A stretch of 64,000 nucleotides of DNA from Escherichia coli. Its GTDB lineage: Bacteria > Pseudomonadota > Gammaproteobacteria > Enterobacterales > Enterobacteriaceae. Of the stretch, positions 31,221-53,969 are shown piece by piece. Every line of letters begins with the position of its first letter. Within the stretch, counting starts at the first letter, position 1. A model generated the notes under the pieces. The model was given only the letters and a program-made list of their open reading frames with translations. It ran no database searches and had not been told where the DNA came from. The stretch lies in the NCBI RefSeq assembly GCF_030384885.1, contig NZ_CP128614.1, one strand, 5' to 3'. A program made the position numbers and the translations under genes.

Positions 31221-33176
31221 TTATACGACCTGCCTGACCATCCTCATCAGAAGGCGGTTTAACAGTCCTTTCGCTGTCGGGCGATTGCTATCGACATAGT
31301 AAAAACCTGTTTTGGTCGTACCGTGAGCACTGCTCAGCACCCTCAGTTCCCAGATAACGTCACGGATAACGCCGCCATTTTCTGGCTTAAGGCATTCAGA
31401 TAAATGGCGCATGAAACGAGCTCTTACGGCACGGTAATAGCGGAACTCCTCTGGCTGGTTAGTATTTTCTTTCACCCGGAGTCGCTGGTTACACAGAGTT
31501 AGAACTGCATCCATCATTCCCGCCTTCAGCTTCGCCTGGATCGCACCTTGTTGCTGTTCCCTCTCACCTTCGAGTAACGTTAAGATTCTTTCTCCGAGTG
31601 CCGTCTTGTTGTGTACGTGCAACTGTACACAGGCAGCTACGCATGCCCAGAATCTGAACTTTTTTATCTGTCCACGCAATTTCCGGGCTACAACCTGACG
31701 GTATGCAGTATCGCTGAGTATTTTAAAACGCCGACTGGCAACCAGCTCTGGAAGCGACACTCTTTCGCCTATCCCCAGGCGGGAAAAGGTTTGTCCCCGT
31801 TGTGCGAGACGATGATAGACAGCGCCCTTCCCTTTTGAAATTCGGACCGCGCCATAACGAAGAAGATACTGAGCAGCAGTCGTTGGAGTAAACTCACCGT
31901 CAGCGATGCTCTGGCGTAACCCGTCGTATTCATGCCAGATAATCCAGGACGCCGTATCTTCTTCAACAGTCAGCTCATCCTCTTCCTCGAATGCCACGAC
32001 GACAGAACTGCTCTCTCCGGTCTTTAGGCTACGTGAAGCCCTGGGGTCAGCCTGCCCGTCAAAATAGGTCATCAGCGGCAACGTATCAGTCAGTCCATCA
32101 TAAGCTGTACCGAACCGGCCTCCGGGCAGTTTCATCCAGAGTGGAGCTGGCATTGGTGTACGGGCCACAGGCAGCATGTCAGGCTCATCCTCAAGAAGGT
32201 CCAGATCGGCCTCTTCCCAGACTCTGCGATAGATCTCAATTGCCCGAAACGGGCGAGGGTTGAAACAGTGCAACGACCAGAGGAAATCAACGTGGATCAC
32301 GTTTGCTTCATGTACAAGCCGAAATTGTGGCTCAGCCATACGACGGTTATAAGCCGTATCGTCCACCTCGCCGGAAAGTAGCTTTCTGCGATGCTTTGCC
32401 GCACGTCTGGCTTCAACATAATCAAGGCTGCAACAGACATGAAAAAGACGTTCAGTCAGGGACGAAGAAAAGATATTGGGTTGAAGACGCACATACCCGC
32501 CTTCGAACACTTTACGACCGATATAATCCCGCAGGCTCCAGTCGTACTGGATCTTAGAAAGAAATCGCTGAAGACGACTTAGGCCTGCCTGATAACCATA
32601 TTTCTCAGGGTCAGTGCGAAGGAGCGTTTCCATTGAATGGTCAACCCCTACGGCTGTGCAAAGCGAGCACCCATATCTAGCCCCACAAGCTGAGGTTCGC
32701 GTGGGTTTCTCCGGCGACCAGATACACTCTCCGGTGGCGTCTTTATAAAGCGTTGCCAGGCTGAAGTTATCCGGCATAAAGCTTGGTAAAGGGAAGCGGG
32801 ATTCGGAACCACAGGCCATTAGAAAAGACCAGATGTCCTGAGTGCGCCACTCCTTTACTGGATAGAGTTCACCACCGTGCTCAGTCAGGGTTACTTTCCT
32901 CGCCTGCCCTCCCATTTTGAGGATATTTCCGGCCCTTCGGGCACTTTCATCATCCCTGGAGCCCAGCATCAGGCATACCCTGCTTCGTACGGATGCCGGG
33001 GCGTTTTTTAGATAACGAGCTTTGGCCTTGCGCAGGGGGGCGATTTTGTAGTCACAAACTACTACCACACTGTTACAGTGTAGAAATTCTGGAAGGCGGT
33101 GCCAGTGTTGGTTTAGGATAATGTTAACAATTTTTCCAGAGTTTTCAGAGAAAAGAGATTTTGAGTGACAAACCAC
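31221..33176 (-). pseudogene. PAPS-reductase-family (DndC/IbrA-like) gene lacking its N-terminal P-loop region
   Basis: 651-aa ORF with GSRDDESARR, EWRTQDIW and CGARYGCSLC motifs of the PAPS-reductase fold but no SGGKDS P-loop; in-frame stop 6 codons upstream of the annotated GTG start (read directly), so the N-terminal part is not encoded here. Confidence 0.5.
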
Positions 33177-33418
33177 TGATGTTTTCCAGAATCACTTTCT
33201 CTTAGAAGATCGATAAAGTCTGTCTATGGGGAGGATCGTCTCCCAGGGTGAAGTCAGTCCACTTCACCGAGTTGCTTCCCCATCGGTGGGTTCTTCAAAA
33301 GGGCAACATGGCCGCCCTCCAGAGGTGAACGTACCTTATGCCTATGTACCAAGCCTTAGATTCCTGATAGTTCTAAGGGCGAGAAATAGCAAACTTACTT
33401 GAAAATTGACTCTGAAAT

Positions 33419-34525
33419 TCAAGCTTCAGCTAGAATAAACTTCCGTTGCTCATCTTCGCATTTATAACATGCGAAATATTTGATTGTTTCCATATCACCA
33501 GTCACATACTCATCACAATGTGGACAGTTAACTGCTGACCATCCTCTATCAAAGCATGAAACACAACTCCACTGACCTTCAATATAGAAAACTGAATTTG
33601 GAGCGTGCTGACATACGTGACAACCAGCGACACATTCGCCACCTTCCTCCCACCAATCATCACCCGTTACATATATGTCGCGACACAATTTTATTAAGAT
33701 ATTTGTGGTGATCTCATGAGCACATTGTGGACATTTATTGATGTCAGGACTGAAAAATTCGAATGGTACTTTACAGTTTGGGCAAGGCAAAGTATCAGTG
33801 ACTTGCTCTACCGCAACGCCCTGCGATTCGCAAACAAGACATTCATAATCATCTCCCCATTTATGAGTATCATTAACTTTACCGGCTTCAAGGCCACATT
33901 GACGGCACTTAACTATTTTAATTTTTTTTAATCTTAAGACGTCAATTTCCTTTGAAAGCTCATTGAATCGGGTGCTGAGGAACTCTTTTTGTTGCAGCAT
34001 TCTCTTATGCACACGCTCAAACTCTTCCTTAAATTTAATAAATTCATCTTTCCATTCAATAGTGAGTAAATTATATAAATGGTGCCATGAAGACCATTGT
34101 TGAGCTACAACCCCTGCTTTATTAGCTTGAGCGCTTGAATATCCAGTGTGTGCAAAGTGAACAATTTGGTTCCTATGCGCACCTAACGTTCTGAACTCAT
34201 CAAGGATACTGTCATCAAGTTTAATGCCAATAACAGTTTTAAGACGTTGAACAGCGTCACTAAAATACACAGAATTAAAGTCACCAACGCTAAATTTTTG
34301 TTTATTAGCTTTGCCAGGATCATCTAATATTAAAGTCCAATGTTCGAGCATTAACCTTGCTTTTAAGAAAAGTTCAATGGCTGTATAGAAATCAACAATC
34401 GAATTTTTGGGTCTTATATTTAAATCATCAATTGACGACTCAAGAAAATCTATAGCATTTATCACTAAAGAATCAAAAAGTTGTTCATTGCTCTGTACTG
34501 TTTGCTTAATGTATGTGCGTGCCAT
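33419..34525 (-). CDS. multi-Cys zinc-ribbon protein, unknown function
   Basis: 368-aa ORF; helical N-terminal half; C-terminal half has at least six CxxC pairs (CRQC, CLVC, CPNC, CPQC, CHVC, CVSC, CPHC, CYKC); very AT-rich coding sequence. Confidence 0.5.
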   Translation of the reverse strand: MARTYIKQTVQSNEQLFDSLVINAIDFLESSIDDLNIRPKNSIVDFYTAIELFLKARLMLEHWTLILDDPGKANKQKFSVGDFNSVYFSDAVQRLKTVIGIKLDDSILDEFRTLGAHRNQIVHFAHTGYSSAQANKAGVVAQQWSSWHHLYNLLTIEWKDEFIKFKEEFERVHKRMLQQKEFLSTRFNELSKEIDVLRLKKIKIVKCRQCGLEAGKVNDTHKWGDDYECLVCESQGVAVEQVTDTLPCPNCKVPFEFFSPDINKCPQCAHEITTNILIKLCRDIYVTGDDWWEEGGECVAGCHVCQHAPNSVFYIEGQWSCVSCFDRGWSAVNCPHCDEYVTGDMETIKYFACYKCEDEQRKFILAEA

Positions 34526-35023
34526 AATGCCTCTTGATTATATTGCCCTTCGAATGTTGAACATTATATCTTTAGAGGCAATATTTTGTCACATCCCACG
34601 ATATTTTGGAGCTGAATTATTTGATCAGGCTTACACAATCTTTCTTCTCTATCCCCATTTACCTTTTGCTCTGTTACCTGCGTTGAAATGGTTGATGACC
34701 CACTAATACTGTACTCTGCCTCTTGTATAAATACATTTCAACATAAGATTGGCAAAGTAATCCTCCATAGTAGCTGCTTGAGTGGTTGATTGTCGGAATA
34801 GTGCATAGCCATTTTGGTCAGCAGAAAGCGCTGTTACCGAATGACTTGATCGTAGTACGTGTCTACTCGCCTACCAGAACTGCTGTCCTCTCATCAACTA
34901 TCTGTATAGGACCATTTGAAACATCAGATATATTTTCAGAAATCTCCTGTTAGCGTGATGGTGACTATCTTAGCTGAGAAGGATTACGAATATATTCTTA
35001 CATCATATTCTTTGAGGTGAAAG

Positions 35024-36247
35024 CTATCTATAATTTTCCAGATAGCAAGTGTCTTTGAATGCATTATAATTGCCAATTTCTTGGTTTATTTCAATTTCAT
35101 AATCTAAGCTGACAATAGGTATTTCAACACCATTTAATAAAAGAGACTCTTGATTTTTCTTCCATTTTTTGTTTTCATTCCATGCTAATTCACTTTTGTT
35201 CTCGGGGTCTCCCATTACTTCAATTTTGATACCTTTTAAAGTAAATGTACAATAAAATGATTTGATGTTTTCTGATGTGGTTTTAAACAACTCCCCTTTG
35301 ATACCAGGGTTGATTAACTTGCATATTTCATTAGCCCCTTTCTCCGTTGTTATGATATCAATATCATTTGCATAAATTTGAACGCCTTGTAAGTACCTAT
35401 TAGCCCCACCAGTTATACTCCAATCCTCCTCAATCGGTTGGAGTAATAATGTTAATTCTGTAATTGCGTCGATCAATTGTTTGCTTTGAAAGTTATTTTT
35501 ATTATAAAGCCGTTGAGCCCAGGTTTGTTTTATTTGCATACTGTGTTTTAAATAAATTGCATTATTAATGCTTGGAGCTGTAAATATCTCATGTTCGTAT
35601 TTAGAATATATGTAAGATAGATATTCTGGTGCTTTGCGATTATTAATCTCTATGAATCCATCTATTTTTTTCATCTCATTGTGGGCGTTGAAAAAACCTG
35701 ACACTTCTGAGAATAAATTATAGAAATTATTTATGACTAGCATCCCAAATATGGCGCGGCTATACTGAAAATCTAAATTATCAGTCAGCGTGGTATACAT
35801 AATAATAATTATACTAACTAGTAGTAGTATTGTTAGTAATAAATAGAATAACTTCTGCTGGAAAGCTTTAATATATAAGATAGAGTTCCAGTATGCATTC
35901 TCTTGTATGAGTGTTATTAACCTCTCTGCACGAAAGCCATTTTTATTTTCCGCATTACCATCAATGTAGAGTCGCTCTCGGTAAAAATTTTCCTCGCCTA
36001 TAATACCTCTCAGCATTTCTAATCTTTTTGTTTCTATAGCCTTAGCTGCATACGAAGTTTTAAAATGCATTGCAAACCAAGTGAGGAGTTGTATTATAAA
36101 CGTGAGGGTTGCAATACCGTAGAGCCAATGAGAATTCAAAAAAATCCCGACGATCGATAAGCAGGAAATCATTAATGTTGAATAACTGATAGACTTAGAT
36201 AAAAAGTCAACTCTATCAAAATAAAAACTACTGTTTTTTGATTCCAT
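35024..36247 (-). CDS. membrane-anchored predicted nucleotidyltransferase (4TM N-terminal domain fused to a Pol-beta-like NTase)
   Basis: 407-aa ORF; about four TM helices in the N-terminal 180 aa; C-terminal ITGGANRYLQGVQIYANDIDI fits the minimal nucleotidyltransferase motif hG[GS]-x(9-13)-DhD; AT-rich. Confidence 0.5.
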   Translation of the reverse strand: MESKNSSFYFDRVDFLSKSISYSTLMISCLSIVGIFLNSHWLYGIATLTFIIQLLTWFAMHFKTSYAAKAIETKRLEMLRGIIGEENFYRERLYIDGNAENKNGFRAERLITLIQENAYWNSILYIKAFQQKLFYLLLTILLLVSIIIIMYTTLTDNLDFQYSRAIFGMLVINNFYNLFSEVSGFFNAHNEMKKIDGFIEINNRKAPEYLSYIYSKYEHEIFTAPSINNAIYLKHSMQIKQTWAQRLYNKNNFQSKQLIDAITELTLLLQPIEEDWSITGGANRYLQGVQIYANDIDIITTEKGANEICKLINPGIKGELFKTTSENIKSFYCTFTLKGIKIEVMGDPENKSELAWNENKKWKKNQESLLLNGVEIPIVSLDYEIEINQEIGNYNAFKDTCYLENYR

Positions 36248-36582
36248 TTCTCTATCTTGCTCACTTTTTTTTGTATTTTTACATACGAATTGACAATGTC
36301 AAGATGTAGGGGGAATAATTTGTTCATAACGCATGGGGAGTAAATAGTTCCTATGAACCAATCATGTCATGATTTTCCACATAACGTGGTGTCAACTACA
36401 AGGCATAATAATCTCAGACATTAGTTCGGATGCTTGTCTCGTAAACTCGAGCTTAAACTTTTAATACTTTAATTGTTATGGCTCAGTCGTTACTGAGAAA
36501 GCTAATTTTGTAAAATAACCACCTACCTTACAGGTGCTAACGGATGCGCAAGCCATTGAATTATCTGGAAAATTCAATGAGT

Positions 36583-37053
36583 TCAATGATTATTTTTTTC
36601 TTCTAATTTTTTTATGACATTCCCATGCTTTTTACCACACCATGCTTGTTTCCTACCCATAATAAGCAAAACCATTGGCTCGGTCGCTTTCAGTCCGGTT
36701 CGCCAAGACCTTAGATCAGTACTTGATGGCTGTGGGAAATCTTCGGGATGCGTATGCCATTCGCCCAAATAGACTAGAAAACCGTCTGATTGCTGAAATA
36801 AGTCATCCACTTTTTGCTGGTGATGTTTGCTTTTTCTTTCTATTCGTAATCGCGATCTTATATCACCTGCGCCTGGTTCTGATATGTGGGTGATGACAAT
36901 GTGTTTCCCACGACGTTCTCCAATAAGGATTCCTCCTGCCTCGGTACTGGCATGATGTAATTGACGATATAAATACAACCGCTGCACAACATCACTCATG
37001 ATGACGACATGATTGTAATCATCATCGATAAAAACTAACTCAGTTATGTTCAT
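36583..37053 (-). CDS. cap3: CBASS Cap3 (JAB/JAMM isopeptidase)
   Basis: 156-aa ORF with EWHTHPEDFPQPSSTD (HxHx7Sx2D JAMM motif); overlaps the cap2 stop by 14 bp. Confidence 0.75.
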   Translation of the reverse strand: MNITELVFIDDDYNHVVIMSDVVQRLYLYRQLHHASTEAGGILIGERRGKHIVITHISEPGAGDIRSRLRIERKSKHHQQKVDDLFQQSDGFLVYLGEWHTHPEDFPQPSSTDLRSWRTGLKATEPMVLLIMGRKQAWCGKKHGNVIKKLEEKNNH

Positions 37054-38809
37054 TGCAGATAGGACAGTTAGGCTGATGTGGCAAAAACTGAGGTTTCAGT
37101 GAACGTCCACCTTCTAACATATGCTCGTTGTAAGTCCATTTGAGGTCAGGCTCAAGAGTACTCAAGACTGCCTGTTGAGCCAAAGATGCCGTTATATTAC
37201 TCACCGCCGCATCATAAGATGTGTATGTGCTACCACAACTTTTATTTTTTTCACTTGAGATATCGAGGTTGTAAAATCGGGAATCGATACCATTATGGTA
37301 TTTTGCTGGATTAGTAACCATACATCCATAGCAGCTTCGGCCATCATCGATTAAAACTTTGGATGCTCGTCCATTACCATCATTGAAGGCGTGGATAATA
37401 ATAGGTCTTTGCTCACAGGGAATCTGTCTTACGATAGCCGCAATACGCTTGGAAACAGGAGGTCGACCTGTTGCATCGATAATAATGTCATATTTTTTCA
37501 TAACATCAATACTGATGGGGAATTGCTTATAAAATCCTTCTACTCTGGTCTGTAAATGCACAGAGTCTTGAAGTTTTGTTGCGAGTGAGAGCGCTTTGGA
37601 CCACCCAAAATCATGTGAAGGTAAAATGTGACGACCAAAATTACTAGGACGGTAGATATCATCATCAAATAAATGCAGTAAACCTTTCCCACAACCGGCA
37701 CCGTTTCGGAGTAACAATTCTGCAATATACCCACCAATGGTTCCGCAACCAACTAAAGCTATACGCTTATCGGATAAGCATTCTTTGCTTCTCCTTTGGG
37801 CATTTCGGCTAAGGAGGGTTGCCATATCAGCGCGAACCACACCCAATCGTTTATATGAGGCGCATACATTTTTACCAGCTAACAATGTGGCAAGTTTGGA
37901 CGTTGATTTTTTAGCTGATCTCTTGTGCCTTCTGAAATCAACAGCGTTAGTATTTAACTCAATATAGATGGCAAATATATCTTGATTGAAAATGTCGAAT
38001 AAAAAAATATATCTTTTCTTCCCCTCTGTTGTGATGTAGTGAACCACTCTGTCCCTGGCATTATGGTCCGCATTTTCTAGCCAGTCCAGTAATTCGCGGA
38101 ATGAAGTCGGTGGCCATTTCATCCCAGCAAGACGATTAGGGTTTACAGAAATATAATGAGTGTTGATAGAATAATTTTTCAAAGATTCTTGACGAAGGTA
38201 TCTTTGATTAAGCCATTTTTTTAAAATGGTTTCAGAGTCCTCGGGAGAGGATTCTTGGACAGTTATATATTCTAGCCTGGGAGAACCATCAGGAAATGTT
38301 GACTCTGAAAACAGTGTCTTAAGTCTGATCCCGCGGCTTGCTTTTGATAAAATATATAAACTATCACTAGGTCGCCAGTAAGTTGCAAATTCACCTTCGA
38401 GTTCTCTCTTATCATTCAGGCCATTAGTAGCGGCTAAAACTGAATTAATCAGTGTTCGGTGAATCTGGGCATCGACTTCTTTGTACGTACCCTCAAGGTT
38501 GTTTGGATCCCAATCAGCTTCCAACTGCTCTACATAACAGAGAATTCCTTCTTGGCTTATGTGAGGCATAAGGCGATCTCTGAACTTTTCAGGCAGATCA
38601 ACTATGCAAGCTAATGGCAGTTCCGTAAAAGGATCTGGCCGAATAACTAGTGCTACATTGAAATTTCCGGCTTCGGTTTCATATTCTTTCGTATAATAGC
38701 CTTTCAGGCGTTCCTGACTGTGTAGGAACGCCTTTTCAGGAAGTTTGCGGGCTAGCGTATAGCGATACCCGCACTCTATCATCATTTTATGGAGCCTTCC
38801 TTCCTCCAT
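37040..38809 (-). CDS. cap2: CBASS Cap2 (E1/E2 ubiquitin-like conjugation enzyme fusion)
   Basis: 589-aa ORF; Rossmann/ThiF-like ALVGCGTIGGYIAELLLRNGAG in the C-terminal half; start overlaps the CD-NTase stop. Confidence 0.75.
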   Translation of the reverse strand: MEEGRLHKMMIECGYRYTLARKLPEKAFLHSQERLKGYYTKEYETEAGNFNVALVIRPDPFTELPLACIVDLPEKFRDRLMPHISQEGILCYVEQLEADWDPNNLEGTYKEVDAQIHRTLINSVLAATNGLNDKRELEGEFATYWRPSDSLYILSKASRGIRLKTLFSESTFPDGSPRLEYITVQESSPEDSETILKKWLNQRYLRQESLKNYSINTHYISVNPNRLAGMKWPPTSFRELLDWLENADHNARDRVVHYITTEGKKRYIFLFDIFNQDIFAIYIELNTNAVDFRRHKRSAKKSTSKLATLLAGKNVCASYKRLGVVRADMATLLSRNAQRRSKECLSDKRIALVGCGTIGGYIAELLLRNGAGCGKGLLHLFDDDIYRPSNFGRHILPSHDFGWSKALSLATKLQDSVHLQTRVEGFYKQFPISIDVMKKYDIIIDATGRPPVSKRIAAIVRQIPCEQRPIIIHAFNDGNGRASKVLIDDGRSCYGCMVTNPAKYHNGIDSRFYNLDISSEKNKSCGSTYTSYDAAVSNITASLAQQAVLSTLEPDLKWTYNEHMLEGGRSLKPQFLPHQPNCPICNEHN

Positions 38810-40110
38810 CAGCCGCTTACCATCGTGGTGTTAATTTTTACAGGCGCCTGCTCCTTAGACGGGGAGATTTGAAATGCAGGAGCCGCAGCAATTGAAGTTA
38901 TTAACGAGGCATTAGTTACTCGTTTTCCAAACGCATTGTTTATCTTACGTAATGCTTCTTCCCTGCTACTTGAACTCTCTGCATCAAGCAAAATCCCCTC
39001 TAAATTTCTCATGGTTTCAACGATGGTTCTCTGATGTACGTTATGATCGCATTCGGCAGGGAAAAGTAACTTTTCATCAGTATCGTCGGGACTTTCCAGA
39101 CCGCGACAGAATTCATTAGGTAGTAATCTTGCAACTAGTTTCATCGTCCCTGTGAGGTCTGAACCATTATGTGCTTCTCTGTCGAGGATGTTTACAACTG
39201 CAGCCATCAGGCTAATAGATGAAGGACCTCCCACTTCCCATTGGGCATCTCTCCAGGCCTTCATAAAGCGGCAAATTGAACGGAGATGACCGCCAATACG
39301 CTTGCAACTATCATTAAACCAATCTTCAACAATTTTGGGGTCGCTGATCGACCACCTTCTTGCACCCTGACGCAGCGCTAAATTAACTTTGTCAGGTTCT
39401 ACTAGATATGCCTCGCGCATATCCATGTTTGCTGATAAAGACTCGAACATGGAGTCGGCACTTTTTATGATGTGTGCTGAATCGGCTGCAGTTTGTTTGG
39501 TCTGAAATTGCTCTTTGGGGATCGCATACATCGGTACGTCGATGTGTGTTTTCTCGTGAGGAATTTTGATGCGTCCGCAGGTGTTTTTTTCTTCATATAC
39601 CCATCCATCGTTTTCAGCCTCTAACGATTTCAGTGACGTATCAACGAGCAGAAGAAGTAAGGTGTGCCCAATACTGGGTTCGGATTCAAAGACCGTCATT
39701 GGCATGTAGGTGCCGTCATCGATATCCATTTCCTGACCCGGGTGAAAAGGTCTGTTTAACGTATCGTATTGAAAACTCCCTTGGGTCCAGAAGCGAGGTT
39801 GAAATTTGATGAAGTCATCACGAGCTACATCTTCCATTTCAAAAATGAGTCGAGCGAGAGTCTCACGGTCTGAGGGAGAGAGGTAGCGAACATTAGTTTG
39901 CTCCAGTTTAAATCTAACGCTTTCAAGCGTCAGAGTTTGCTTTCTGGCGTCTGTAGCAATTTGACGAGCTTCTTTAAACACATCCCTCGTTCTTTCACGG
40001 ACTTTCTGGCGAAGTGCTTTCAGTTTGTCGGATTCAGTCTTACCCAATTTTAGTTTACTGATTAAGCCATCCACACTATGGCTGTAGTAATTGTTAAAAT
40101 CCCAACGCAT
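38809..40110 (-). CDS. dncV: CD-NTase, DncV-like cyclic dinucleotide synthase
   Basis: 433-aa ORF; NTase motif QGSFQYDTLNRPFHPGQEMDIDDG; long stretches match Vibrio cholerae DncV as recalled (MRxxWNFxxYY N-terminus, RFWTQGSFQYDTLNRPF, C-terminal NxAFGxRVTN...STMVSG). Confidence 0.85.
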   Translation of the reverse strand: MRWDFNNYYSHSVDGLISKLKLGKTESDKLKALRQKVRERTRDVFKEARQIATDARKQTLTLESVRFKLEQTNVRYLSPSDRETLARLIFEMEDVARDDFIKFQPRFWTQGSFQYDTLNRPFHPGQEMDIDDGTYMPMTVFESEPSIGHTLLLLLVDTSLKSLEAENDGWVYEEKNTCGRIKIPHEKTHIDVPMYAIPKEQFQTKQTAADSAHIIKSADSMFESLSANMDMREAYLVEPDKVNLALRQGARRWSISDPKIVEDWFNDSCKRIGGHLRSICRFMKAWRDAQWEVGGPSSISLMAAVVNILDREAHNGSDLTGTMKLVARLLPNEFCRGLESPDDTDEKLLFPAECDHNVHQRTIVETMRNLEGILLDAESSSSREEALRKINNAFGKRVTNASLITSIAAAPAFQISPSKEQAPVKINTTMVSG

Positions 40111-41180
40111 CAGTGGATCTCCTGCGCATTCATGCGCTTAAAGGGTTTTGCGGGAGTAGTGAAAAAATTCTTAAGCTTCTGATCTTGAGCGAACTCAACA
40201 TTGGCGAGCTGCCTTCCCCTTGCGCTTAAATTTTCAAGGGAACTCTTCGTGGCATTATCCAGGGTGATATCACTGGCTGCTTCATTGGGGATAATTTCAT
40301 CCAGGTAGATGTAGTTATCCACCGCGTCATGGAGCATAAGCTCACGCTGTAGCATATTTTTATGAAGATGCTGGTTAGCTGTCATGGTTGTAAGCACCAG
40401 CCGTTTTCCCATACCCCAGAGACGACAGTAGCCATTCCACCATGTTTTGCTCAACAACTTTGGACTAAGTGAATACTCTTCACCAACAGTACCGATATTA
40501 AGTATATGTATGTCTTTATGGGTGACGCTGAAGTCAGAATTCATATCCCTGAAAACTTCCAGAAGTCCTATGTAGCTGGGGTTGTTTGCGACCAGACCAC
40601 CATCGGCAAAATATGCGCGGAGATCCTCACAATAGTGTGGGGAAAAATACGTTGGCGCGGCTGAGGTTGCCAGTGCGGCATCTATCAATTTAAGAGGCCC
40701 ATCACGAGTAAAATCTGGGTTGTGTGGTGTCTTGAAAAACTGCGGTTTTCCTGTTGAAAGGTTTACTGCCGGGATCATTACTCGCCGGGTTAGGTCATTG
40801 AATGTGGTTTCAGCCCCAATCATTTCTTGAATTGTTTCGCGAAGAGGATGGCTGCGGTAGATAGGAGCACAAAGTGATCTAAGCAAGTTGGTCAGGGACC
40901 ATCTTTTGGGAAAAATGTCATTCGCCCTATCGAAGAACACTCGTTCCAGCTCACGGGCACTTTTTCCTGTAGCAAGGCCGAGAGCTAATATGCCGCCTAT
41001 TGATGTCCCTGTAATGAGGTCAAAATAATCGCCAATTTTAATATCCTGATTAGGGTATTTGCTGGCAAGTATCCTCTCAATCTCAGAAAGGACACTGATC
41101 GTAAACATTCCCCTGGCCCCCCCGCCATTAAGACTTAGTATCCGCACGCCATAGTGATTTCCTGCACTTATGTCAGACAT
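40110..41180 (-). CDS. capV: CBASS effector CapV (patatin-like phospholipase)
   Basis: 356-aa ORF with patatin motifs GGGARG (oxyanion), GTSIGG (GxSxG nucleophile) and DGG; stop overlaps the dncV start. Confidence 0.85.
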   Translation of the reverse strand: MSDISAGNHYGVRILSLNGGGARGMFTISVLSEIERILASKYPNQDIKIGDYFDLITGTSIGGILALGLATGKSARELERVFFDRANDIFPKRWSLTNLLRSLCAPIYRSHPLRETIQEMIGAETTFNDLTRRVMIPAVNLSTGKPQFFKTPHNPDFTRDGPLKLIDAALATSAAPTYFSPHYCEDLRAYFADGGLVANNPSYIGLLEVFRDMNSDFSVTHKDIHILNIGTVGEEYSLSPKLLSKTWWNGYCRLWGMGKRLVLTTMTANQHLHKNMLQRELMLHDAVDNYIYLDEIIPNEAASDITLDNATKSSLENLSARGRQLANVEFAQDQKLKNFFTTPAKPFKRMNAQEIH

Positions 41181-45992: not shown

Positions 45993-46433
45993 TTATTTTA
46001 TTCTTACTATCTGGCCTTGTTTTAAAGCTTTTATCTCTTGTTCCAGCGCTTCAATACGTGAACGTGCAACCCTCAGCGCATGGGAGAGCTGATGATGTTC
46101 AGCCGCCATCACTTCCAGACGACGTTTCATATCAGATGCTTTTACACGGTACTGAATTTTCACTTTACGCTCTTGGTTAAATTTATGTCGCAGGGCTTCC
46201 TGTGACTGATGAGTTAGCCTGCCCTGAGGGGATATTTTTAACCGCAGAATTTCCTCCTGGACGCGTGACTTAAATGCCCCGTAGTAGTAACAGGTTCCGT
46301 TTCCCAGCCCGGCCTCCTCTTCAACAGCACGCACCGACAACTTTCGGTTGTCAGGGATACGTTTTGTCTGACCATCAAGGATCCGTTGTAGTGCAGCTTC
46401 AAGTTTAAGGAGTGTATTTTCTGATTTGCTCAT
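45993..46433 (-). CDS. small coiled-coil protein downstream of the recombinase genes
   Basis: 146-aa ORF overlapping the stop of the 720-aa gene by 4 bp. Confidence 0.45.
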   Translation of the reverse strand: MSKSENTLLKLEAALQRILDGQTKRIPDNRKLSVRAVEEEAGLGNGTCYYYGAFKSRVQEEILRLKISPQGRLTHQSQEALRHKFNQERKVKIQYRVKASDMKRRLEVMAAEHHQLSHALRVARSRIEALEQEIKALKQGQIVRIK

Positions 46434-48592
46434 ACGCCTGTCACCTTAATGGGATGTTCATATGTGTCATAGCCAATCCCATGATCCTGCATAACCCGTT
46501 CCGCAGCCCGGATTTGAGTGATACAGTGGGCATACTCACTGATGCTTAGATCCGTCTGTTGCTGAAGATACATTATCAAAGCATTATGACGTTGCTGCCA
46601 CCACATGGCCTTATCCGTATCGATAATGCTTCCACCGCTACGACAATCCACGCAGAATGCAGGGTTGACCACACCATCCATATCGCAGTCATAGCCGTTT
46701 TTGCAGTAACTATGTAGCGTTCCATGCAAAGTAAGTCGTTTTTCCCTGACCAGTCGATAGAGATTATCCCAGCTACTGTAGATCACAGGCTTATCATTAC
46801 GCATAGCTAGAATGGCTTTGCCAAAACTTCCGCTGAGTTGACTATCCCCGTTAAACCAGCTGTCAAAAAGACTAGTTGTCTGTTCGAGCCTTGCTTCATT
46901 CAGTAATTTAATCAGTTCGCTGTCCACCTGTATTGATTGTAGCCGTGCTTCAACAGCACCGTTCCCATACCATTCACTCATTCGCAGGCTGAGGTGTTTA
47001 AACTGTTGTTTGATTGCGATGGGGTGTCCGAGCTGGTTACGTACGGCAAAGCAGGCGAAAGTTCTTCGAAACTGATGGGTTAAAAGGGGCCAGGCCTCTC
47101 CTGTTCTGATCTTATCTTCTATAGCCCCCCTGTCCCGAGGGTTAAGCTGACGGCACTCTGCGAGTGCCTGTTTATCAACAATAGCACCCACATGTCTGGA
47201 AAAATTTTTTAAACGGTCGTTCCACTTGCTGCGTGAAATGAGGACAGGCAGGTTTTTTCTTTGGTACTGGCTGAGCCACAGATTTCCTGCTGTCTCAGTA
47301 AGCGTATCAGACTGCCCTGGGTCGTTGCTGTGAACCGCTATTTTTAACAGCTGTTCACGAGCACACGCGCTGAGAGCCGTCGCAAGCGATATGGCTTTTT
47401 CAACAATAGGGCTTGCCAGCCATTCTTCATTTTTTTTCCCGGCAGCCAGTTTGTGGGTTGCTGCGCTTACCGAGTGAAAATCCTGTCCATTAATGGTGTA
47501 GGTGTGAAAACTGTCCACATGCAATTCAAATATTTCGCTGACTCTCATTCCTGTGAAAGCACCACAACAAATAAAACAGGCTGCCTGAAGTTGAGCACGA
47601 AAACTGACGAGCCAGTTACCGTCTGCTGCGCTACTGGGCAGGAGTCCTGTTCCGGTGAGATGGTTTTTGATTAGGGTATTTTGCGACCGGGGTGTCGCTT
47701 TATTAATTTCTTCTACATATTCTTTTGAACATAATTTCCCCTGTCCGTTAGTCAGCCATGTCCACTTACCTGTAAGTATTTTATAGTCAACAACGGCACG
47801 CCCGATATCATAATTAGACTGCAGTTCACGTTCTAGCTGGGCTAGTGTTTCTCTGTGGGGCCATGCAAGCTCGACAAGTCTAACGGCTTCTCCATAGAGT
47901 ATATTTGCTATTGCCTGGGGGATGGCCAGGGTTTGCCTGTGTTCTGCTTTATTTTTAGCTGACAGTTTTTTGGCTGTCTGTTTGTAGTTCAGCTGTGGCA
48001 GGTCAAGCTGGAAAGGAAGCCATGAATTTAGTCTTTCGACTGACTGTAGTGCAGAGAAAATCAATTCAACAGTTCGCTTACTAAAGGCTTCACGTTCGAT
48101 ATCGTTTTGTAGCTTTTGCCATATCTCGGGTTTATTGAAGTCAGACAGGCACGTGCTGCCACTATGCAAAAGCGTTAATAAACTCTTTTTTAACCCTAAA
48201 TTGAATCGGGAGGTCAGTGTTGACAGCTTGCAGTCTTTTCCGGAGTGATAATTTTGCTCAAATATCCATCCATATACGATAAGCTTCGCCTGAAGGAGAA
48301 GCGCCGGAGCGGACTCCAAATAGGTAAAGTTAAATTCACGCTGGTTTTTATCCGTTCCCTTATCTGAAGCAAAGGGGCTACAGTCCCAGCAATTTTGACC
48401 AAAATATGCTCGCGTGATGTTATGTTTATCGATACATATTGGGAGCTTATCGAGCGCAGACCAGTTTTTGTTTTTTATCAGAAGTAAAATATCTTCTGTG
48501 GCTCCATACGTCAGAGCGTCTTTATGAAATGAGTTCAACAGAATAGCCATAGTGATCCTTATGTCATATCTGTGCTTTGCACATCTGACCAC
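46430..48592 (-). CDS. tyrosine-recombinase-like protein (third of three tandem genes)
   Basis: 720-aa ORF with AFTGMRVSEIFEL (box I Arg) and LTHQFRRTFACFAV (HxxR) in the C-terminal half. Confidence 0.55.
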   Translation of the reverse strand: MVRCAKHRYDIRITMAILLNSFHKDALTYGATEDILLLIKNKNWSALDKLPICIDKHNITRAYFGQNCWDCSPFASDKGTDKNQREFNFTYLESAPALLLQAKLIVYGWIFEQNYHSGKDCKLSTLTSRFNLGLKKSLLTLLHSGSTCLSDFNKPEIWQKLQNDIEREAFSKRTVELIFSALQSVERLNSWLPFQLDLPQLNYKQTAKKLSAKNKAEHRQTLAIPQAIANILYGEAVRLVELAWPHRETLAQLERELQSNYDIGRAVVDYKILTGKWTWLTNGQGKLCSKEYVEEINKATPRSQNTLIKNHLTGTGLLPSSAADGNWLVSFRAQLQAACFICCGAFTGMRVSEIFELHVDSFHTYTINGQDFHSVSAATHKLAAGKKNEEWLASPIVEKAISLATALSACAREQLLKIAVHSNDPGQSDTLTETAGNLWLSQYQRKNLPVLISRSKWNDRLKNFSRHVGAIVDKQALAECRQLNPRDRGAIEDKIRTGEAWPLLTHQFRRTFACFAVRNQLGHPIAIKQQFKHLSLRMSEWYGNGAVEARLQSIQVDSELIKLLNEARLEQTTSLFDSWFNGDSQLSGSFGKAILAMRNDKPVIYSSWDNLYRLVREKRLTLHGTLHSYCKNGYDCDMDGVVNPAFCVDCRSGGSIIDTDKAMWWQQRHNALIMYLQQQTDLSISEYAHCITQIRAAERVMQDHGIGYDTYEHPIKVTGV

Positions 48593-50334
48593 AGGGGATG
48601 TCGTCCTTCATCAGCAAGTTTTCGACGGGCATGTTGTAGTGTTTTTTGATTCAGTAATTTCAGCCTGCTATCAATGTTTACGATGGTCTGGCCAAAGTTT
48701 TTTGTGTAATGGGCTTTATCCAGGTGAAGGTATTGTGATTCTTCCAGATATTCACGGAAGCTTAACACGCACCATAAATCCGTTACTGATTCGACCAGAA
48801 CCTGATGTTTGCAACTCCAGCAGTTTAACAGGTCAGCACAAGCCAGCGTTTCTTCCGGGGGGATCAGCCCGTTTCTCCTGGCCCGGGAAGTGAACATCGT
48901 GGCCATTGTACCAGCCGTGTCGTTACAATAACTTCCATGGGAGTTTCGTACGGGAGGCGATGCTCTTCTGACATAGGCCTCATATGCCAGCACGCTGACC
49001 TTTTGTGCTTCACGTACTTTCTGTTTTGCAGATTCAATACTCTGCCTGTCCCGGACAACCTGTTCCAGTGTCTGGCTGGTATCCCGGTTCATTTGATTGT
49101 TCTCGTAGGGGTTACCATCAGAATATGCCTGACGGATAGTTTCGGGGGTATTATCAAGCAGTAGTGCAGCCTCGACCGGGCCCTTCAGCGCCAGTGTCAG
49201 ATGACTGCCGGTGGCCCGAAAGCGCCTGGTGACCGGCCACAGCCTTTGCCCTAAGTCGTCTGTCATGGGGAAGTGTACAGAGAGCCAGCTACTTTTGAAG
49301 TCATTCAGCAGGCAGGAACTCATCATCTGGACGCTTTTTTTCCGATGACTATAGGTCGGTAAGAGCAGGCCATCCGGGCCGGGGTCTAACAACGTTGACG
49401 CAGTAATGAGCTGGTCAAAAAACTGTGTTGCGTATTTGGGTATTTCCAGCCGATTGTTGTCACCTATCTCAACAGAGATTGTTTTAAATGCCCGGCGCTT
49501 AAAGGCTGGCATCTGATGCCAGTTATCTGATGGTGTATGGCTGCTGAGTGTCGGTCTTTTTAATGTGTACAGGATGGAGCTGTTGCTCCATGTGTAATAA
49601 CTGAGCAGGTATGCGGCTGCATAAAATAATTTTGATACACCGCTGCGTACAGGATACGTTTTCCCTTTCCAGCAAAAAGTCATTGTTGCTGTGATACCGC
49701 TGGCTTTGATATGTGAATCTGGGTCAAGAATAAACTGGGAGTAAAGTTGCCTGAACAGTCCTCTTAGTAAAGGGAGTAATTTTTTCAGGTCACCATCGCT
49801 ATATCCTCGTGTGGGCTCTGATTGTGTATTTCCCGGGTTTTTAAACCCTGACGTAAACTTTGTACTCCGCCCCATCCAGTTGTATAAGGTTGTCAGGTCT
49901 GCCTTTATCCTGGAGGCTGTGCTGTCTTTGATTTCGCCCCTCCTTTGACGAAGTAAATGACATTTCAACTCTCTGATGAACGTGCTCTCAGACAGGGGGA
50001 TAAGTGCTGGCACCTGACTGTCACAGAAAGTAAAATGCTTTCTTGCAGCATTAAAAATATTATACTTTGTTGCAGGTGTGACATCTTCATGGCCAGTAAT
50101 TGCAATAAACAGTGACTGTACAATGTCATCCCGTGCCAGTAATTGCTCATCCCCCTGTTTTATCAGGTTGGTTTTGGGTATGCCCTTATAGCGAAAGCGG
50201 TTAAAATCTAACAGGGTATGAGCATTGGCGCCATTGCGTATTGGTATACAGAGGTGTTCAACCCAGGGCGTTGTGAGTTTTAATTTGCTGCTCATACTTT
50301 CACTCCAGTAGTGCTCTGTGCATAATTTCATCAA
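48559..50334 (-). CDS. recombinase-module protein (second of three)
   Basis: 591-aa ORF overlapping both neighbours; catalytic motifs not clearly readable. Confidence 0.45.
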   Translation of the reverse strand: MMKLCTEHYWSESMSSKLKLTTPWVEHLCIPIRNGANAHTLLDFNRFRYKGIPKTNLIKQGDEQLLARDDIVQSLFIAITGHEDVTPATKYNIFNAARKHFTFCDSQVPALIPLSESTFIRELKCHLLRQRRGEIKDSTASRIKADLTTLYNWMGRSTKFTSGFKNPGNTQSEPTRGYSDGDLKKLLPLLRGLFRQLYSQFILDPDSHIKASGITATMTFCWKGKTYPVRSGVSKLFYAAAYLLSYYTWSNSSILYTLKRPTLSSHTPSDNWHQMPAFKRRAFKTISVEIGDNNRLEIPKYATQFFDQLITASTLLDPGPDGLLLPTYSHRKKSVQMMSSCLLNDFKSSWLSVHFPMTDDLGQRLWPVTRRFRATGSHLTLALKGPVEAALLLDNTPETIRQAYSDGNPYENNQMNRDTSQTLEQVVRDRQSIESAKQKVREAQKVSVLAYEAYVRRASPPVRNSHGSYCNDTAGTMATMFTSRARRNGLIPPEETLACADLLNCWSCKHQVLVESVTDLWCVLSFREYLEESQYLHLDKAHYTKNFGQTIVNIDSRLKLLNQKTLQHARRKLADEGRHPLWSDVQSTDMT

Positions 50335-51679
50335 GCATAGAGATTTTTTCTTTCAGGGCTTCTTTAGTTTTTAGATAGCGTAAATACTTCCATGTTGTTG
50401 ATTCATTTTTATGCCCCATCCATTGCATCAGCAGGCTGAGTGCATCGGCAGGCTCTATGCCCGCAGTAAGTAGACTGTACAGGCGATACGTTGCATAACT
50501 GCACCTCAGGTCATGAAACTTATGGTCAAATGCGATCCCTGAATTAATCATTTTTTTTCGCAATTCACCAAATCGGGCACCCGTGCTCTGTGGGGTACAG
50601 GGGGAGCCCTGCTGACTAATAAATAAGGGTTCATTTTGAATGGCAGAAACTAAAGATTCAGATCTGATTTTGTCTGAAAAGAGTGTTCCGGGTACGGTTT
50701 TTATTTCTTGCTGACCCATTTTTAACATCGCTTTAATACGCATCTGTAATTTATCAAAGCGGGTCATTCTTCTTTCGCTAATGGCATAGTGCTGTAATTT
50801 ATCTAAAAGAGTATTAGTTATTTCAATCGTTCTTGTTTTATTATATTTAGTGGGTACACCGTTACTAGGTCCAATAGTGATTTCGTAGTGGGTACGTGAT
50901 TCGGTTCTTTGTACAGCCTGATTTAACGCAGTTAAGGTAAATCCTGTGGCTTCTTCAATTCTGAGCCCACATTGTGCTGCCAGCAGACAAATAAGCTGCA
51001 TTTCAACTGAGGTCTGGCTAAGATGGATTGCAAATTCTGTAAGCATTGTTTGCGAAAGTGGTGATAATCTGCGAATATTCAGACTGTTAGAGTCTTTAGG
51101 GACCCTGATACGTAAATCCGTTGTCTGTACGAAAAATTTTGGCTTCATATGTGCCAGTATGTCGTTATTTCTGAATCTGACAAATTCTATGTCAAAGGGT
51201 TTGTTTGTTTCCGTTACCGGAAAGTAGTGCTCATACGCTGCCCAGAGATAGAACTGTACAAGATGACATATATAGGTATTAGCCGTGGAAAAAGCGATTT
51301 CTCCAGTTTTGACCTTTTTTAGCAGCCCATCATTACGGTAGCGATAGGCAGGTTTTAATGCTTTTACTGCAGGAAAGTTATCCCATGCAAGTTCTTCAGA
51401 CTCCAAAAAGCACCAGTAAAATTTTAACGCTCTTGCATAAGAGCTAAGGTTTTCCAGTCTTTTTTCAGCTTTGAGATGTATAAGCCATTGATTTACAGGT
51501 TCTATATAATTACCATCATAACCATACAATGTAGGAAGTGGACCCACATTTCGTCCCCCCCTGAATTCAATCGATTCATCTGTAGTAATGATATCACCAC
51601 CAATAAATACATCTGCTGAGTTGAGTAAATAAGCCAAGAATGCAGACCTCCAATGGTTGTAAACTTCTGCCATGCTCAT
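50300..51679 (-). CDS. tyrosine recombinase / integrase (first of three)
   Basis: 459-aa ORF with CGLRIEEATG (box I Arg), HKFHDLRCSYATY (HxxR) and C-terminal WKYLRYLK Tyr region. Confidence 0.65.
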   Translation of the reverse strand: MSMAEVYNHWRSAFLAYLLNSADVFIGGDIITTDESIEFRGGRNVGPLPTLYGYDGNYIEPVNQWLIHLKAEKRLENLSSYARALKFYWCFLESEELAWDNFPAVKALKPAYRYRNDGLLKKVKTGEIAFSTANTYICHLVQFYLWAAYEHYFPVTETNKPFDIEFVRFRNNDILAHMKPKFFVQTTDLRIRVPKDSNSLNIRRLSPLSQTMLTEFAIHLSQTSVEMQLICLLAAQCGLRIEEATGFTLTALNQAVQRTESRTHYEITIGPSNGVPTKYNKTRTIEITNTLLDKLQHYAISERRMTRFDKLQMRIKAMLKMGQQEIKTVPGTLFSDKIRSESLVSAIQNEPLFISQQGSPCTPQSTGARFGELRKKMINSGIAFDHKFHDLRCSYATYRLYSLLTAGIEPADALSLLMQWMGHKNESTTWKYLRYLKTKEALKEKISMLDEIMHRALLE

Positions 51680-52783
51680 TCTCCAAAGCCTGATGCTGTT
51701 TCCCCGGAAGATAACAAGAAAAGACCGGGTGTGTGGCTATGAAGAAGATCCTGTATAACTTGAAGAACATGTCCCCGGACATTATATTTCAGTGACATAC
51801 CTTAGTTATGTTTAGCTCATCTTCAGCGAAAAGCCAGTACCAGATTAATCATCTGGAAGAGGTGAGCATCTGTTAAGTTTAGACAATATTTCCCGGAACG
51901 AGAAACTAGCTGGAAAAATGGAAGAGGAAGGTATGAATCAGCGTTTCATCTGGTTTGCGGAAAACAGAGACAAAAAGTATAGGGAGGATATCGATGCTAA
52001 CATATTTTCTCAATGAGATAATGTGTGATAGTAATTTAATGCTTATGTAAAATTGGGCTACCCATTGAAAGAACCAAGAATCAATATAACTGGATAGATG
52101 TTTTGGATGAATTGTTCCTTCAGAAATAAGTGGGGTCTACATACTTTATCAGGTTCAACAGTCTGATACAAAAGATAGTACAACCTCAGTGCCTGGCTGT
52201 TTAGCGCTGGTTTTAAAAGGTTAATCAAAGGTTTTGAAGGAAGGATGATTGAGCAGTAACAGCCTTATGAAGGTTGTATACATTGATACTGCGTGCCCGG
52301 AGAGAAAATGAGAGGGTGAGGCATCGGTTTCACCCTCTCATCAGCCGCTGATATGCTGATGGAAATAAACCACTAGGGCGTACTACTGTATGCTAGATCC
52401 CTTTTAATTTAATCATCTTCTGATTTGTATACAACAACTTTGATTGAGATTTTATTTTTGACAGACGTAACTTATTTTGGCTGAAAAGTTGTATTCGCTA
52501 CCCTCATGAAATTAAAATATGCGGAGTACTTTCTGCCCTGAAAAAGACGCTTCCGTGAAAAGCAGATAAACCCTGATGAGAAAAGATGGTGATCACTAAC
52601 TGACTAGTAGTGATGTTAATTCACGTTTTTTGATTTTTAAGTTCGATACAACTACGTGATAATTTATAGTTTTTATGGGAAAGTGATGCGTTTTACTGAG
52701 GGGTGGCATTCTTCAGTAGGGTAAAAATTAATCTTCCTACAAATTAGTTCTTATATATTGAGATGCTTGGAAAGAATCCGGAC

Positions 52784-53032
52784 TTATGAGTATACGCCAT
52801 GCTCTAAACGCAAAATTAATGATACGACCATTAAACCTCCCTCTTCAGGGTCAATGGCTTCAGTGGGTGTTTTCCAGGCTAATGCTCTGTTAGAGGTATT
52901 GCACCATTTCAAAGCAGAATCTCTGTTCCCCTCAAAAAGCGCTAACGCTTTTAGATGTAGAACACTTTTGGTCATCATCTGTGATCCTGAATGACTTTTT
53001 AGTACTTCAAAAAGGTTGCTTCGTAGAGTCAT
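52784..53032 (-). CDS. DUF2384-like protein (toxin-binding domain of Xre/ParS/MbcA-type antitoxins)
   Basis: 82-aa ORF; DSALKWCNTSNRALAWKTPTEAIDPEEGGLMVVSLILRLEHGVYS fits the recalled DUF2384 consensus (W..P.ALGG.P..L..T..G...V...L.RIEHG); no RES-type partner ORF downstream; palindromic motif 115 bp upstream. Confidence 0.5.
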   Translation of the reverse strand: MTLRSNLFEVLKSHSGSQMMTKSVLHLKALALFEGNRDSALKWCNTSNRALAWKTPTEAIDPEEGGLMVVSLILRLEHGVYS

Positions 53033-53146
53033 TGTTTCGGGTCGTTACGAACTCAACTGTGGCAACCTTGCTTGTCATGATTTCCGAACCTACCTGTCGG
53101 GGCACAGATAATGCCAGCAAAGATACTATTCCATACGCTATCCCAA

Positions 53147-53157
53147 AAAGTTACTTT
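53147..53157. promoter_or_regulatory. palindromic motif AAAGTTACTTT, copy 7
   Basis: 115 bp upstream of the gene starting at 53032. Confidence 0.5.
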
Positions 53158-53396
53158 TCTATAGCAACCTAAACCAGTGTGGTTGTGACCAGTCCCCGGT
53201 ATTAAACACCATAGTCAGTTAGTAATATCAGTTTTCTTTCTTTATCCCATTTTGCCAGTCTATTGCAAACTCCGCTGGCGTCAGAAAATTCAGTGAGGAA
53301 TGAGGCCGACATGCTCTGCACTCTGACCTGATAGCATAAAAAAACTGGCTTTTTAGGCCAGTTTTACAGAGTTGCAAAGGTGTAGGTATAGTTTTT

Positions 53397-53969
53397 CTAC
53401 ACTAACGTGTCATGGTAGGTTGAGCACTGACGGGTTGAAGAATTAGTCCAGGTCGGAAGTCCACGTCCAGTCAGAATGCGGCCTACCCAGCTCTGCGTAA
53501 GAGACGGTTGGGCGACAAGGACTGTGACCGGTAGCTGGTGTTCAGCAATGAACATTCTAAGCTGGTTGAGAACCTGTGAAGCCTGATAGTGCATCTCAGG
53601 GTTTTCGATCAGCGTATCGGACATCTGAATGAAATGATGTTCGCTGATATTTGTGCCGTTACGTACTGCCCTGATCAATGCCATCAGAAATAGGTGAAGA
53701 AGAGAATGGGAGTCTTTACCGCCACTGTATCCCACGCACATCGTCCATCCGTCCGTAATAGCCTGATAAATAGCAGATGTGGCTGACGTGACCAGAGAAG
53801 AAAGACTCACAGTCTCCTTTTCATCGGTATAGTTCAGATCGGCATCGGTTGTCAGGGTCTCCCAAACATCAGCCCATTTATCATGTTTCAAAATGGCAGC
53901 ATTAGCCGCCTCAGGAAAAATAACTTCTGAGGGTAATTCAAGGAATGAGTCACTTTTTTCAATAAACAT
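53397..53969 (-). pseudogene. N-terminal fragment of a PAPS-reductase-family (DndC/IbrA-like) gene
   Basis: 190-aa ORF with P-loop YSGGKDS and DT/PE motif (SDTLIENPE) but none of the downstream fold motifs; those are found in the 31221..33176 ORF. Confidence 0.5.

Follow-up and report, generated by a model that had tools for sequence, protein, structure and literature searches.

The window (the whole 64-kb stretch of DNA analysed here) is, judged from its sequence, an IncHI2 plasmid; the flanking 8.6 kb shared 99-100% identity with hundreds of IncHI2 plasmids from Escherichia, Salmonella, and Enterobacter, and in nearly all of them this similarity halted abruptly at 33053. A 20.36-kb insertion (33054-53417), composed of a strand-biased circularizing integrative element (SE) and a 6-bp footprint, split a 794-aa PAPS-reductase/DndC-like gene (Table 1). 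The called PAPS-reductase open reading frame (ORF) reached 33176 through element DNA, and its first 41 codons (33054-33176) did not belong to the gene. The initial annotation had described 230 bp of non-coding DNA beside this truncated ORF: the non-coding character held, but the extent did not, since gene homology ended at 33053 and the non-coding stretch was truly 33054-33418 (365 bp).

Table 1. Coordinates of the features in and around the inserted element (window positions)
Feature	Position	Strand	Description
PAPS-reductase/DndC-like gene, C-terminal part	31221-33053	-	100% identity to the intact gene until 33053; DndC/PRK06850 NCBIfam matches
SE footprint	33054-33059		ACAAAC (GTTTGT in element orientation); between target DNA and C'; missing from the empty site
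Motif C', intA-distal terminus, attR core	33060-33079	-	minus-strand read ACTGTAACAGTGTGGTAGTA; equal to C' of SE-EasCA1043 (PMC10214605, Additional file 6)
Box 1	33082-33094		AGAAATTCTGGAA; minus-strand TTCCAGA at 33088-33094; invariant, at equal distance from the terminus in the pPSV and pNDM-116-14 SEs
Box 2	33133-33140	+	TTTCCAGA; invariant in four aligned attR ends
Box 3	33182-33190	+	TTTTCCAGA; invariant; last conserved block of the arm; overlaps the first base of 33190-33420
Lineage-specific non-coding filler	33196-33370		175 bp; holds the first four hairpins below and the 5' half of the fifth
Hairpin	33229-33244		GGGAG-GATCGT-CTCCC
Hairpin, 8-bp stem	33247-33268		GGTGAAGT/ACTTCACC; longer form of GTGAAGT/ACTTCAC
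Hairpin	33265-33288		CACCGA-N12-TCGGTG; overlaps the hairpin at 33247-33268
Hairpin	33300-33318		AGGGC-N9-GCCCT
Hairpin	33354-33378		CCTTAGA-N11-TCTAAGG
3' flank of HEC-08-like gene	33371-33418	-	similarity to two homologues elsewhere runs ~48 nt past the stop codon
HEC-08-like zinc-ribbon cargo gene	33419-34525	-	368 aa; DUF3644-type N-terminus, C-terminal zinc ribbons
Further cargo	35024-41180	-	407-aa nucleotidyltransferase-like membrane protein and type II CBASS operon (Pfam, PADLOC)
SE core operon	45993-51679	-	identified by gene order and sizes
srap	45993-46433	-	146 aa
intB	46430-48592	-	720 aa; R...HxxR...Y-like motifs read by eye
tfp	48559-50334	-	591 aa
intA	50300-51679	-	459 aa; Pfam Phage_integrase match (tyrosine recombinase)
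Motif C, intA-proximal terminus, attL core	53398-53417	+	TACACTAACGTGTCATGGTA; equal to published C of SE-EasCA1043
Target 6 bp beside motif C	53418-53423		GGTTGA (TCAACC in element orientation)

E. coli plasmid pEC21Z147-274K, which carried the intact 794-aa gene, was used as the empty-site reference. The empty site of this plasmid was GATTTTGTAGTC|GGTTGAGCACTG, and the IncHI2 attB for the element was GATTTTGTAGTC|GGTTGAGC; in the window, the left junction was GATTTTGTAGTC-ACAAAC-TACTACCACACTGTTACAGT..., the right junction was ...TACACTAACGTGTCATGGTA-GGTTGAGCACTG, and backbone homology to pEC21Z147-274K returned at 53418. This comparison of junctions and empty site therefore gave an insertion of 20,358 bp plus 6 bp, with target duplication absent. 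A 3-bp target duplication, considered from a 3-bp overlap at the junction, was ruled out, since the termini as published, together with the hexamer that varies between copies, exactly accounted for the junction. The left end of the element lay at 33060, and the hairpins, which did not occur at the attR ends of related SEs, are not the att site. The initial annotation had supposed an element end or an attachment-site remnant here; an end of a mobile element was indeed nearby, but not at the supposed coordinates, the true end lying ~130-170 bp left of the hairpins, and a remnant was not supported: the junction was an intact attR, and the element was complete, with its attL at 53398-53423.

The SE class and its member SE-EasCA1043, found in the chromosome of Enterobacter asburiae CAV1043 at 2990132-3010419 of NZ_CP034336.1, have been described (Idola et al. 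2023, Mob DNA 14:7, PMC10214605). By its termini and gene content, the insertion is a complete SE and effectively SE-EasCA1043; it displayed (i) imperfect terminal inverted repeats C/C', with both 20-mers identical to those of SE-EasCA1043, (ii) the gene order intA-tfp-intB-srap at one element end, and (iii) a variable 6-bp footprint without target duplication. The identity of this already published element and its exact ends, 33060 and 53417, were thus established here. Tfp and IntB gave no Pfam, NCBIfam, or significant PDB sequence match, and the exact Srap and IntA sequences were present on many Enterobacter contigs.

The element and SE-EasCA1043 shared the C/C' termini, the core gene order, the presence of a 6-bp footprint beside C', and nearly the same G+C content (42.0% here and 42.02% as published); moreover, the cargo accessions of the pMY490 copy (WP_0233095xx) neighboured the published Tfp/Srap accession numbers. 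They differed as follows: (i) the published length was 20,288 bp, 70 bp shorter than the 20,358 bp found here; (ii) SE-EasCA1043 was chromosomal, while the present copy was inserted in an IncHI2 plasmid gene; and (iii) the footprint was TCAACC in the former and GTTTGT in the latter. The experimentally studied SEs, namely SE-6283 and SE-6945 (Vibrio alfacsensis) and SE-Pda04Ya311 (Photobacterium damselae plasmid), had in common with the present element the four-gene core, the imperfect terminal inverted repeats, and the footprint beside C' without target duplication, but their proteins were distant: tblastn with IntB gave 24.7% identity (E=2e-36) against a V. alfacsensis plasmid and 45% identity over the C-terminal 284 aa (E=1e-79) against a 204-kb P. 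damselae plasmid. Members of the class are characterised by recombination of a single strand between attL and attR, which yields a circle but no empty site (PMC10214605). Further plasmid-borne SE-like operons were also matched by IntB in tblastn.

GInts (PMC5385486) and Tn554 resembled the element in being integrative elements whose movement depends on a pair of tyrosine recombinases and one small auxiliary protein, and Tn554 additionally leaves a 6-bp footprint. Identity as a GInt was ruled out: the catalytic motif of GInts is found in the second gene and is lacking from the third, while catalytic-type motifs were found here in the third gene (720 aa), as in the SE order, and the termini were those of the published SE; SE and GInt proteins also fall in separate clusters. 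Tn554 differed in having no Tfp counterpart.

The cargo of the element is defence-related. Besides the genes in Table 1 it contained an HTH-helicase module, and its CBASS operon was complete (JAB, E1/E2, DncV-like cyclase, and patatin phospholipase). The HEC-08-like protein matched HEC-08, a candidate defence family in PADLOC (E=5.7e-70), and DUF3644 (E=1.7e-44), together with a weak match to Pfam Zn_ribbon, and it had 130 homologues, those examined being located in varied islands. Zinc-ribbon homologues in unrelated islands showed 78-88% nucleotide identity, and this similarity ended at ~33371. The 'defence island' itself gains a fixed boundary: it makes up the cargo carried by a complete, published element spanning 33060-53417, and its edge is not ragged.

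Conservation of the attR end was assessed against distant SEs of C. freundii pPSV (IntB 38% identical) and V. cholerae pNDM-116-14 (IntB 70% identical); the attR ends of two more IncHI2-plasmid SEs were not located by a terminus-pattern search. The attR ends of the distant SEs aligned with the window only from 33053 to ~33195, which established how far conservation extends. Within this arm, C' and three TTCCAGA boxes were invariant and had the same spacing across the four aligned attR ends; TTCCAGA occurred 23 times in the 64 kb, with three occurrences inside 103 bp of the arm. The boxes are putative accessory binding sites for IntA/Tfp/IntB/Srap, as their conservation suggests. A comparable layout is that of the arm-type sites in the att regions of lambda-like phages, which likewise consist of short repeated boxes that occupy one arm in either orientation, each at a fixed distance from the core; the proteins, however, have no sequence relation, and binding is putative in the present case. 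The conserved map of the attR arm (C' plus three boxes) thus offers candidate sites at which the four proteins of a poorly understood recombination system may bind. The TTCCAGA boxes have no mention in the main text of PMC10214605.

Inward of the arm, both hairpins named in the initial annotation were present: GGGAG-GATCGT-CTCCC at 33229-33244 and GTGAAGT-CAGTCC-ACTTCAC at 33248-33267, the latter being the inner part of a hairpin with an 8-bp stem. Both are real but ordinary. With loops of 3-12 nt, the 64-kb window contained 61 perfect hairpins with stems of 7 bp or longer and 26 with stems of 8 bp or longer; nine neighbouring pairs of perfect hairpins lay at most 130 nt apart, and the perfect-stem score of the segment was matched by 4% of equal-length windows. 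The description of the segment as hairpin-rich was therefore not borne out, its content being no greater than chance. The G+C content and the hairpin density of the filler were somewhat higher than those of its neighbours.

Folding, RNA-family, terminator, and promoter analyses were then considered for the same DNA. After regression on G+C content, 6% (plus strand) and 14% (minus strand) of same-size windows were equally stable or better. Dinucleotide shuffling gave z-scores of -1.47 (plus) and -1.33 (minus) for 33206-33380, and of -1.04 (plus) and -2.72 (minus) for the wider 242 nt of 33177-33418. No Rfam covariance model matched anywhere in the 64-kb window at gathering thresholds; at E<=10, the region 32900-33700 gave just eukaryotic snoRNA/lncRNA models plus the bacterial sRNA Hrs1, all far under threshold and none a credible family. 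No tRNA or tmRNA was found by scanning. One weak promoter-like match was presented at 33165-33192, within chance expectation. The sub-threshold Hrs1 match was located at 32947-33009, outside 33190-33420. There is no structural signal in 33196-33370 beyond composition.

The sole diverged copy of the segment, carried by Klebsiella oxytoca, was 95.6% identical and had nine substitutions in the segment: four at unpaired positions; two adjacent ones turning CTCCC into TCCCC, so that the first hairpin (33229-33244) kept a 5-bp stem shifted by one register; one unpairing the outermost bases of the 8-bp stem; one giving a G-T pair, with A-C on the opposite strand; and one breaking a single pair in the 7-bp stem. 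No compensatory double changes were found in this single copy, and its folding z-scores were -0.26 and -0.25, the excess stability being lost. The register shift of the first hairpin could be read as maintenance of structure. The whole comparison is a weak test of structure conservation and covariation, because only one diverged copy exists. From the z-scores, the stem losses, and the amino-acid changes (see below), it follows that there is no evidence of selection on structure or protein. The earlier suggestion of a small structured RNA was thus not sustained: no Rfam family was matched, the stability was not significant, and the structure was not kept in the K. oxytoca copy.

These results bear on an explanation from the neighbouring gene, by which the hairpins would form a structured 3' untranslated region, a terminator, or a small RNA of the HEC-08-like gene on the minus strand, stabilising its transcript or blocking read-through into attR. 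All hairpins were located directly 3' of the stop codon of this gene on the minus strand, the stem 33300-33318 was followed by UUUUGAAG on that strand, and the 242-nt minus-strand fold reached a z-score of -2.7. Against this, a scan of 32900-33700 for intrinsic terminators (G+C-rich stem followed by at least five T in eight positions) found none in 33177-33418 on either strand; the U-run at the stem mentioned above had four bases and lay partly inside the stem; the K. oxytoca variant weakened three stems; and homologous genes elsewhere shared 48 nt of 3' flank with zero hairpins, none being found downstream of the five zinc-ribbon gene homologues inspected. Such a role is accordingly unlikely, although it fared best among the alternatives.

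The distribution of the filler was determined by similarity and pattern searches. By blastn, it was found in 3 of 72,556 plasmids, as near-identical copies of the SE, with one additional distant match to the terminus; blastn/megablast found none in 5,426 E. coli genomes and none in 50,697 phages. When 100,044 species genomes were scanned for the pattern of the second hairpin (33247-33268) with a free loop, two chance matches came up (an alphaproteobacterial MAG and Gordonia), with no resemblance outside the pattern, and a metagenome pattern scan with a 24-mer of the filler yielded one extra copy of the same SE. The filler therefore occurred only in this SE and in a K. oxytoca/K. michiganensis plasmid relative, and it was 100% identical in every retrieved copy of this SE; neither the filler nor its hairpins occurred at the attR ends of related SEs (V. 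cholerae and C. freundii). The V. cholerae SE had no counterpart of the hairpins because the stop codon of its cargo gene lay ~20 nt beyond box 3. Since the filler was invariant within the lineage, its dispensability can be argued only from this absence in related SEs.

It is very doubtful that the clustered hairpins serve the transposition machinery in cis, whether as extra arm sites or as a folded single-strand signal for second-strand synthesis. The cluster lay less than 360 bp from the terminus and was perfectly kept in all retrieved copies of this SE, and SEs exchange one specific strand (PMC10214605). However, it was missing from related attR ends that do have the terminus and the three boxes, there was no room for it in the V. 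cholerae SE, its folding as DNA or RNA was unexceptional, and the SE intermediate is, according to Idola et al. (PMC10214605), a double-stranded nicked circle.

The borders of the segment recall a decayed repeat fragment (MITE, REP-type palindromic unit, or integron attC) caught between arm and cargo: the G+C content jumped at both of them (51.5% for 33206-33370 vs ~37% on each side), and an imperfect inverted pair, TTTCTCTTAGAA at 33196-33207 and TTCTAAGGGCGAGAAA at 33370-33385, flanked the segment. This origin is disfavoured, and judged highly improbable, because a repeated element should recur, but the segment was single-copy in the window, and no other copy was found beyond the same SE in the plasmids, E. 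coli genomes, and phages or by the pattern scans. A similarly slim chance is given to a bolder pair of proposals, namely that this SE acquired 33229-33378 as a lineage-specific cis element, either a folded single-strand signal acting in the strand-biased copy-out/copy-in cycle or a regulatory sRNA complementary in sense to the 3' part of the HEC-08-like defence gene transcript (antisense), and, separately, that the boxes are undescribed accessory sites setting the asymmetry of attR and attL; the proposal about the boxes ranked as the more plausible one. The initial annotation had seen no ORF, but a 58-aa ORF (33226-33402, plus strand) and a 32-aa ORF (33254-33352, minus strand) were listed, and coding of a small protein by the former is hardly credible: it was open in the window and in the K. 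oxytoca copy, but it was rejected because eight of the nine base substitutions between the two altered the amino acid, indicating no coding constraint, and moreover no ribosome-binding site was seen before its ATG and it was restricted to the lineage-specific filler.

The reading that we prefer, and hold to be probable, is that 33190-33420 lies on the attR side of a complete SE, as the inward, variable portion of its non-coding end, and that the hairpins there have no dedicated function. The attR-side end would then consist of three layers: (i) 33054-33195, the working end, comprising the footprint, the 20-nt C' at which strands would be exchanged, and the three boxes; (ii) 33196-33370, the G+C-richer filler, which is most likely a scar left when cargo was acquired; and (iii) 33371-33418, a 3' flank imported with the HEC-08-like gene. 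As the SE literature and the conservation of the arm suggest, IntA, Tfp, IntB, and Srap would assemble on C' and the boxes and swap one strand at the boundary of C' and the footprint; the filler would serve as a spacer between this recombination arm and the first cargo gene, and the most that the hairpins may do is to impede, weakly and incidentally, transcription heading from the cargo toward the element end. The hairpins would accordingly matter very little, and a false lead is removed.

Movement of the element was traced by its footprints. In the SE model, the six donor-site bases adjoining motif C are copied and placed beside C' at the new site (PMC10214605). Ten further copies at other insertion sites were retrieved via the exact zinc-ribbon protein, and one metagenome copy was added. 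Across all 359 nt between 33060 and the stop codon of the cargo gene, the ten copies were 100% identical to the window, and the metagenome copy, which started at 33060, was 99.85% identical over 33060-35750; in all 12 copies of the SE lineage (these 11 plus that of K. oxytoca), similarity was lost exactly past 33060. Five kinds of hexamer were found beside identical C': GTTTGT, ATTTGT, TCAACC, TCTACC, and TCTACG. These footprints illustrate how a non-conjugative, defence-carrying element spreads through transport by conjugative plasmids. The published CAV1043 copy and five retrieved ones had TCAACC as their footprint. Because the same TCAACC stands beside motif C in the window, where a copy leaving the site would take it along, these chromosomal Enterobacter copies probably descend from an ancestor in the same position on an IncHI2 plasmid.

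The hexamer adjoining the intA-proximal terminal motif C of the strand-biased circularizing integrative element (SE) in the window (53418-53423) was TCAACC in element orientation. The same TCAACC was present as the attR footprint (the 6 bp that lie beside the intA-distal motif C' and are brought from the donor site) in five further copies of this SE (L016, L019-L021, and L023 among the retrieved loci L016-L025; footprint at about 3967-3972), and also in the published SE copy of E. asburiae CAV1043 (PMC10214605). Because the hexamer beside motif C equaled the attR footprint of all these copies, an IncHI2 plasmid copy at exactly the window's site was probably the donor of the CAV1043 copy and of the five further ones. 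The footprint of the window SE itself, GTTTGT (33054-33059), was also present in SEs on one K. oxytoca plasmid and one C. freundii plasmid.

The SE of K. oxytoca plasmid NZ_CP115680.1 (L003/L005) had terminal motifs nearly the same as those of the window SE, and it was inserted in the opposite orientation into a homologous PAPS-reductase gene of this IncHI1B plasmid. Across their attR ends and CBASS/HEC-08 cargo the two SEs shared 94-96% nucleotide identity, whereas their IntB proteins were only 45% identical, so that a swap of core module and cargo must have taken place between SEs.

SE-like core operons were additionally observed between trhU and trhN on IncHI2 plasmids of E. kobei (L026) and C. 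koseri (L027). Their IntB proteins were about 41% identical to that of the window, and no element ends were found for either operon when attR ends were sought with the terminus pattern; the defence-type genes next to them differed, one set being of caspase/GASH type and the other of multiubiquitin-ThiF-DUF6527 type.

The region between intA and motif C (51680-53397) was unusually long (1.7 kb) and had few ORFs. One small ORF therein appears, by coordinate transfer alone, to be the counterpart of a pMY490 CDS annotated as an MbcA/ParS/Xre-type antitoxin, which had no adjacent toxin gene. In the attL arm of the K. oxytoca SE (L005, 5497-5590), two TCTGGAAAAC/GTTTTCCAGA boxes in inverted arrangement lay at distances of about 45 and 72 nt from motif C; the matching positions were degenerate in the window arm (53335-53400; TCTGTAAAAC and GTTTTTTTAT).

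Coordinates of features within the window SE
Feature	Position	Strand	Description
Small ORF	about 52784-53032	-	inside 51680-53397
Terminator-shaped hairpin	about 53340-53367		AAAACTGGCCTAAAAAGCCAGTTTTTTT; inside 51680-53397
'Zn-ribbon gene'	33419-34525	-	match to PADLOC candidate defence family HEC-08; N-terminal domain DUF3644

The core genes of the pMY490-mcr-9 copy (L015; NZ_CP053569.1) were annotated as several short fragments, with the intB match in 4 pieces, and this could reflect frameshifts or assembly errors in the record; the copy was otherwise 99.7% identical to that in the window.

Within the attR arm, 33159-33177 (TTTTGAGTGACAAACCACT) was 79% identical to the junction 33045-33063 (TTTGTAGTCACAAACTACT), a span reaching from target DNA across the footprint into the beginning of C'. 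This likeness may be due to chance or mark a secondary site. In islands of Rahnella, Ewingella, and E. coli type, the examined homologues of the HEC-08-like gene had integrases, toxin-antitoxin genes, and further genes of defence type as neighbours.
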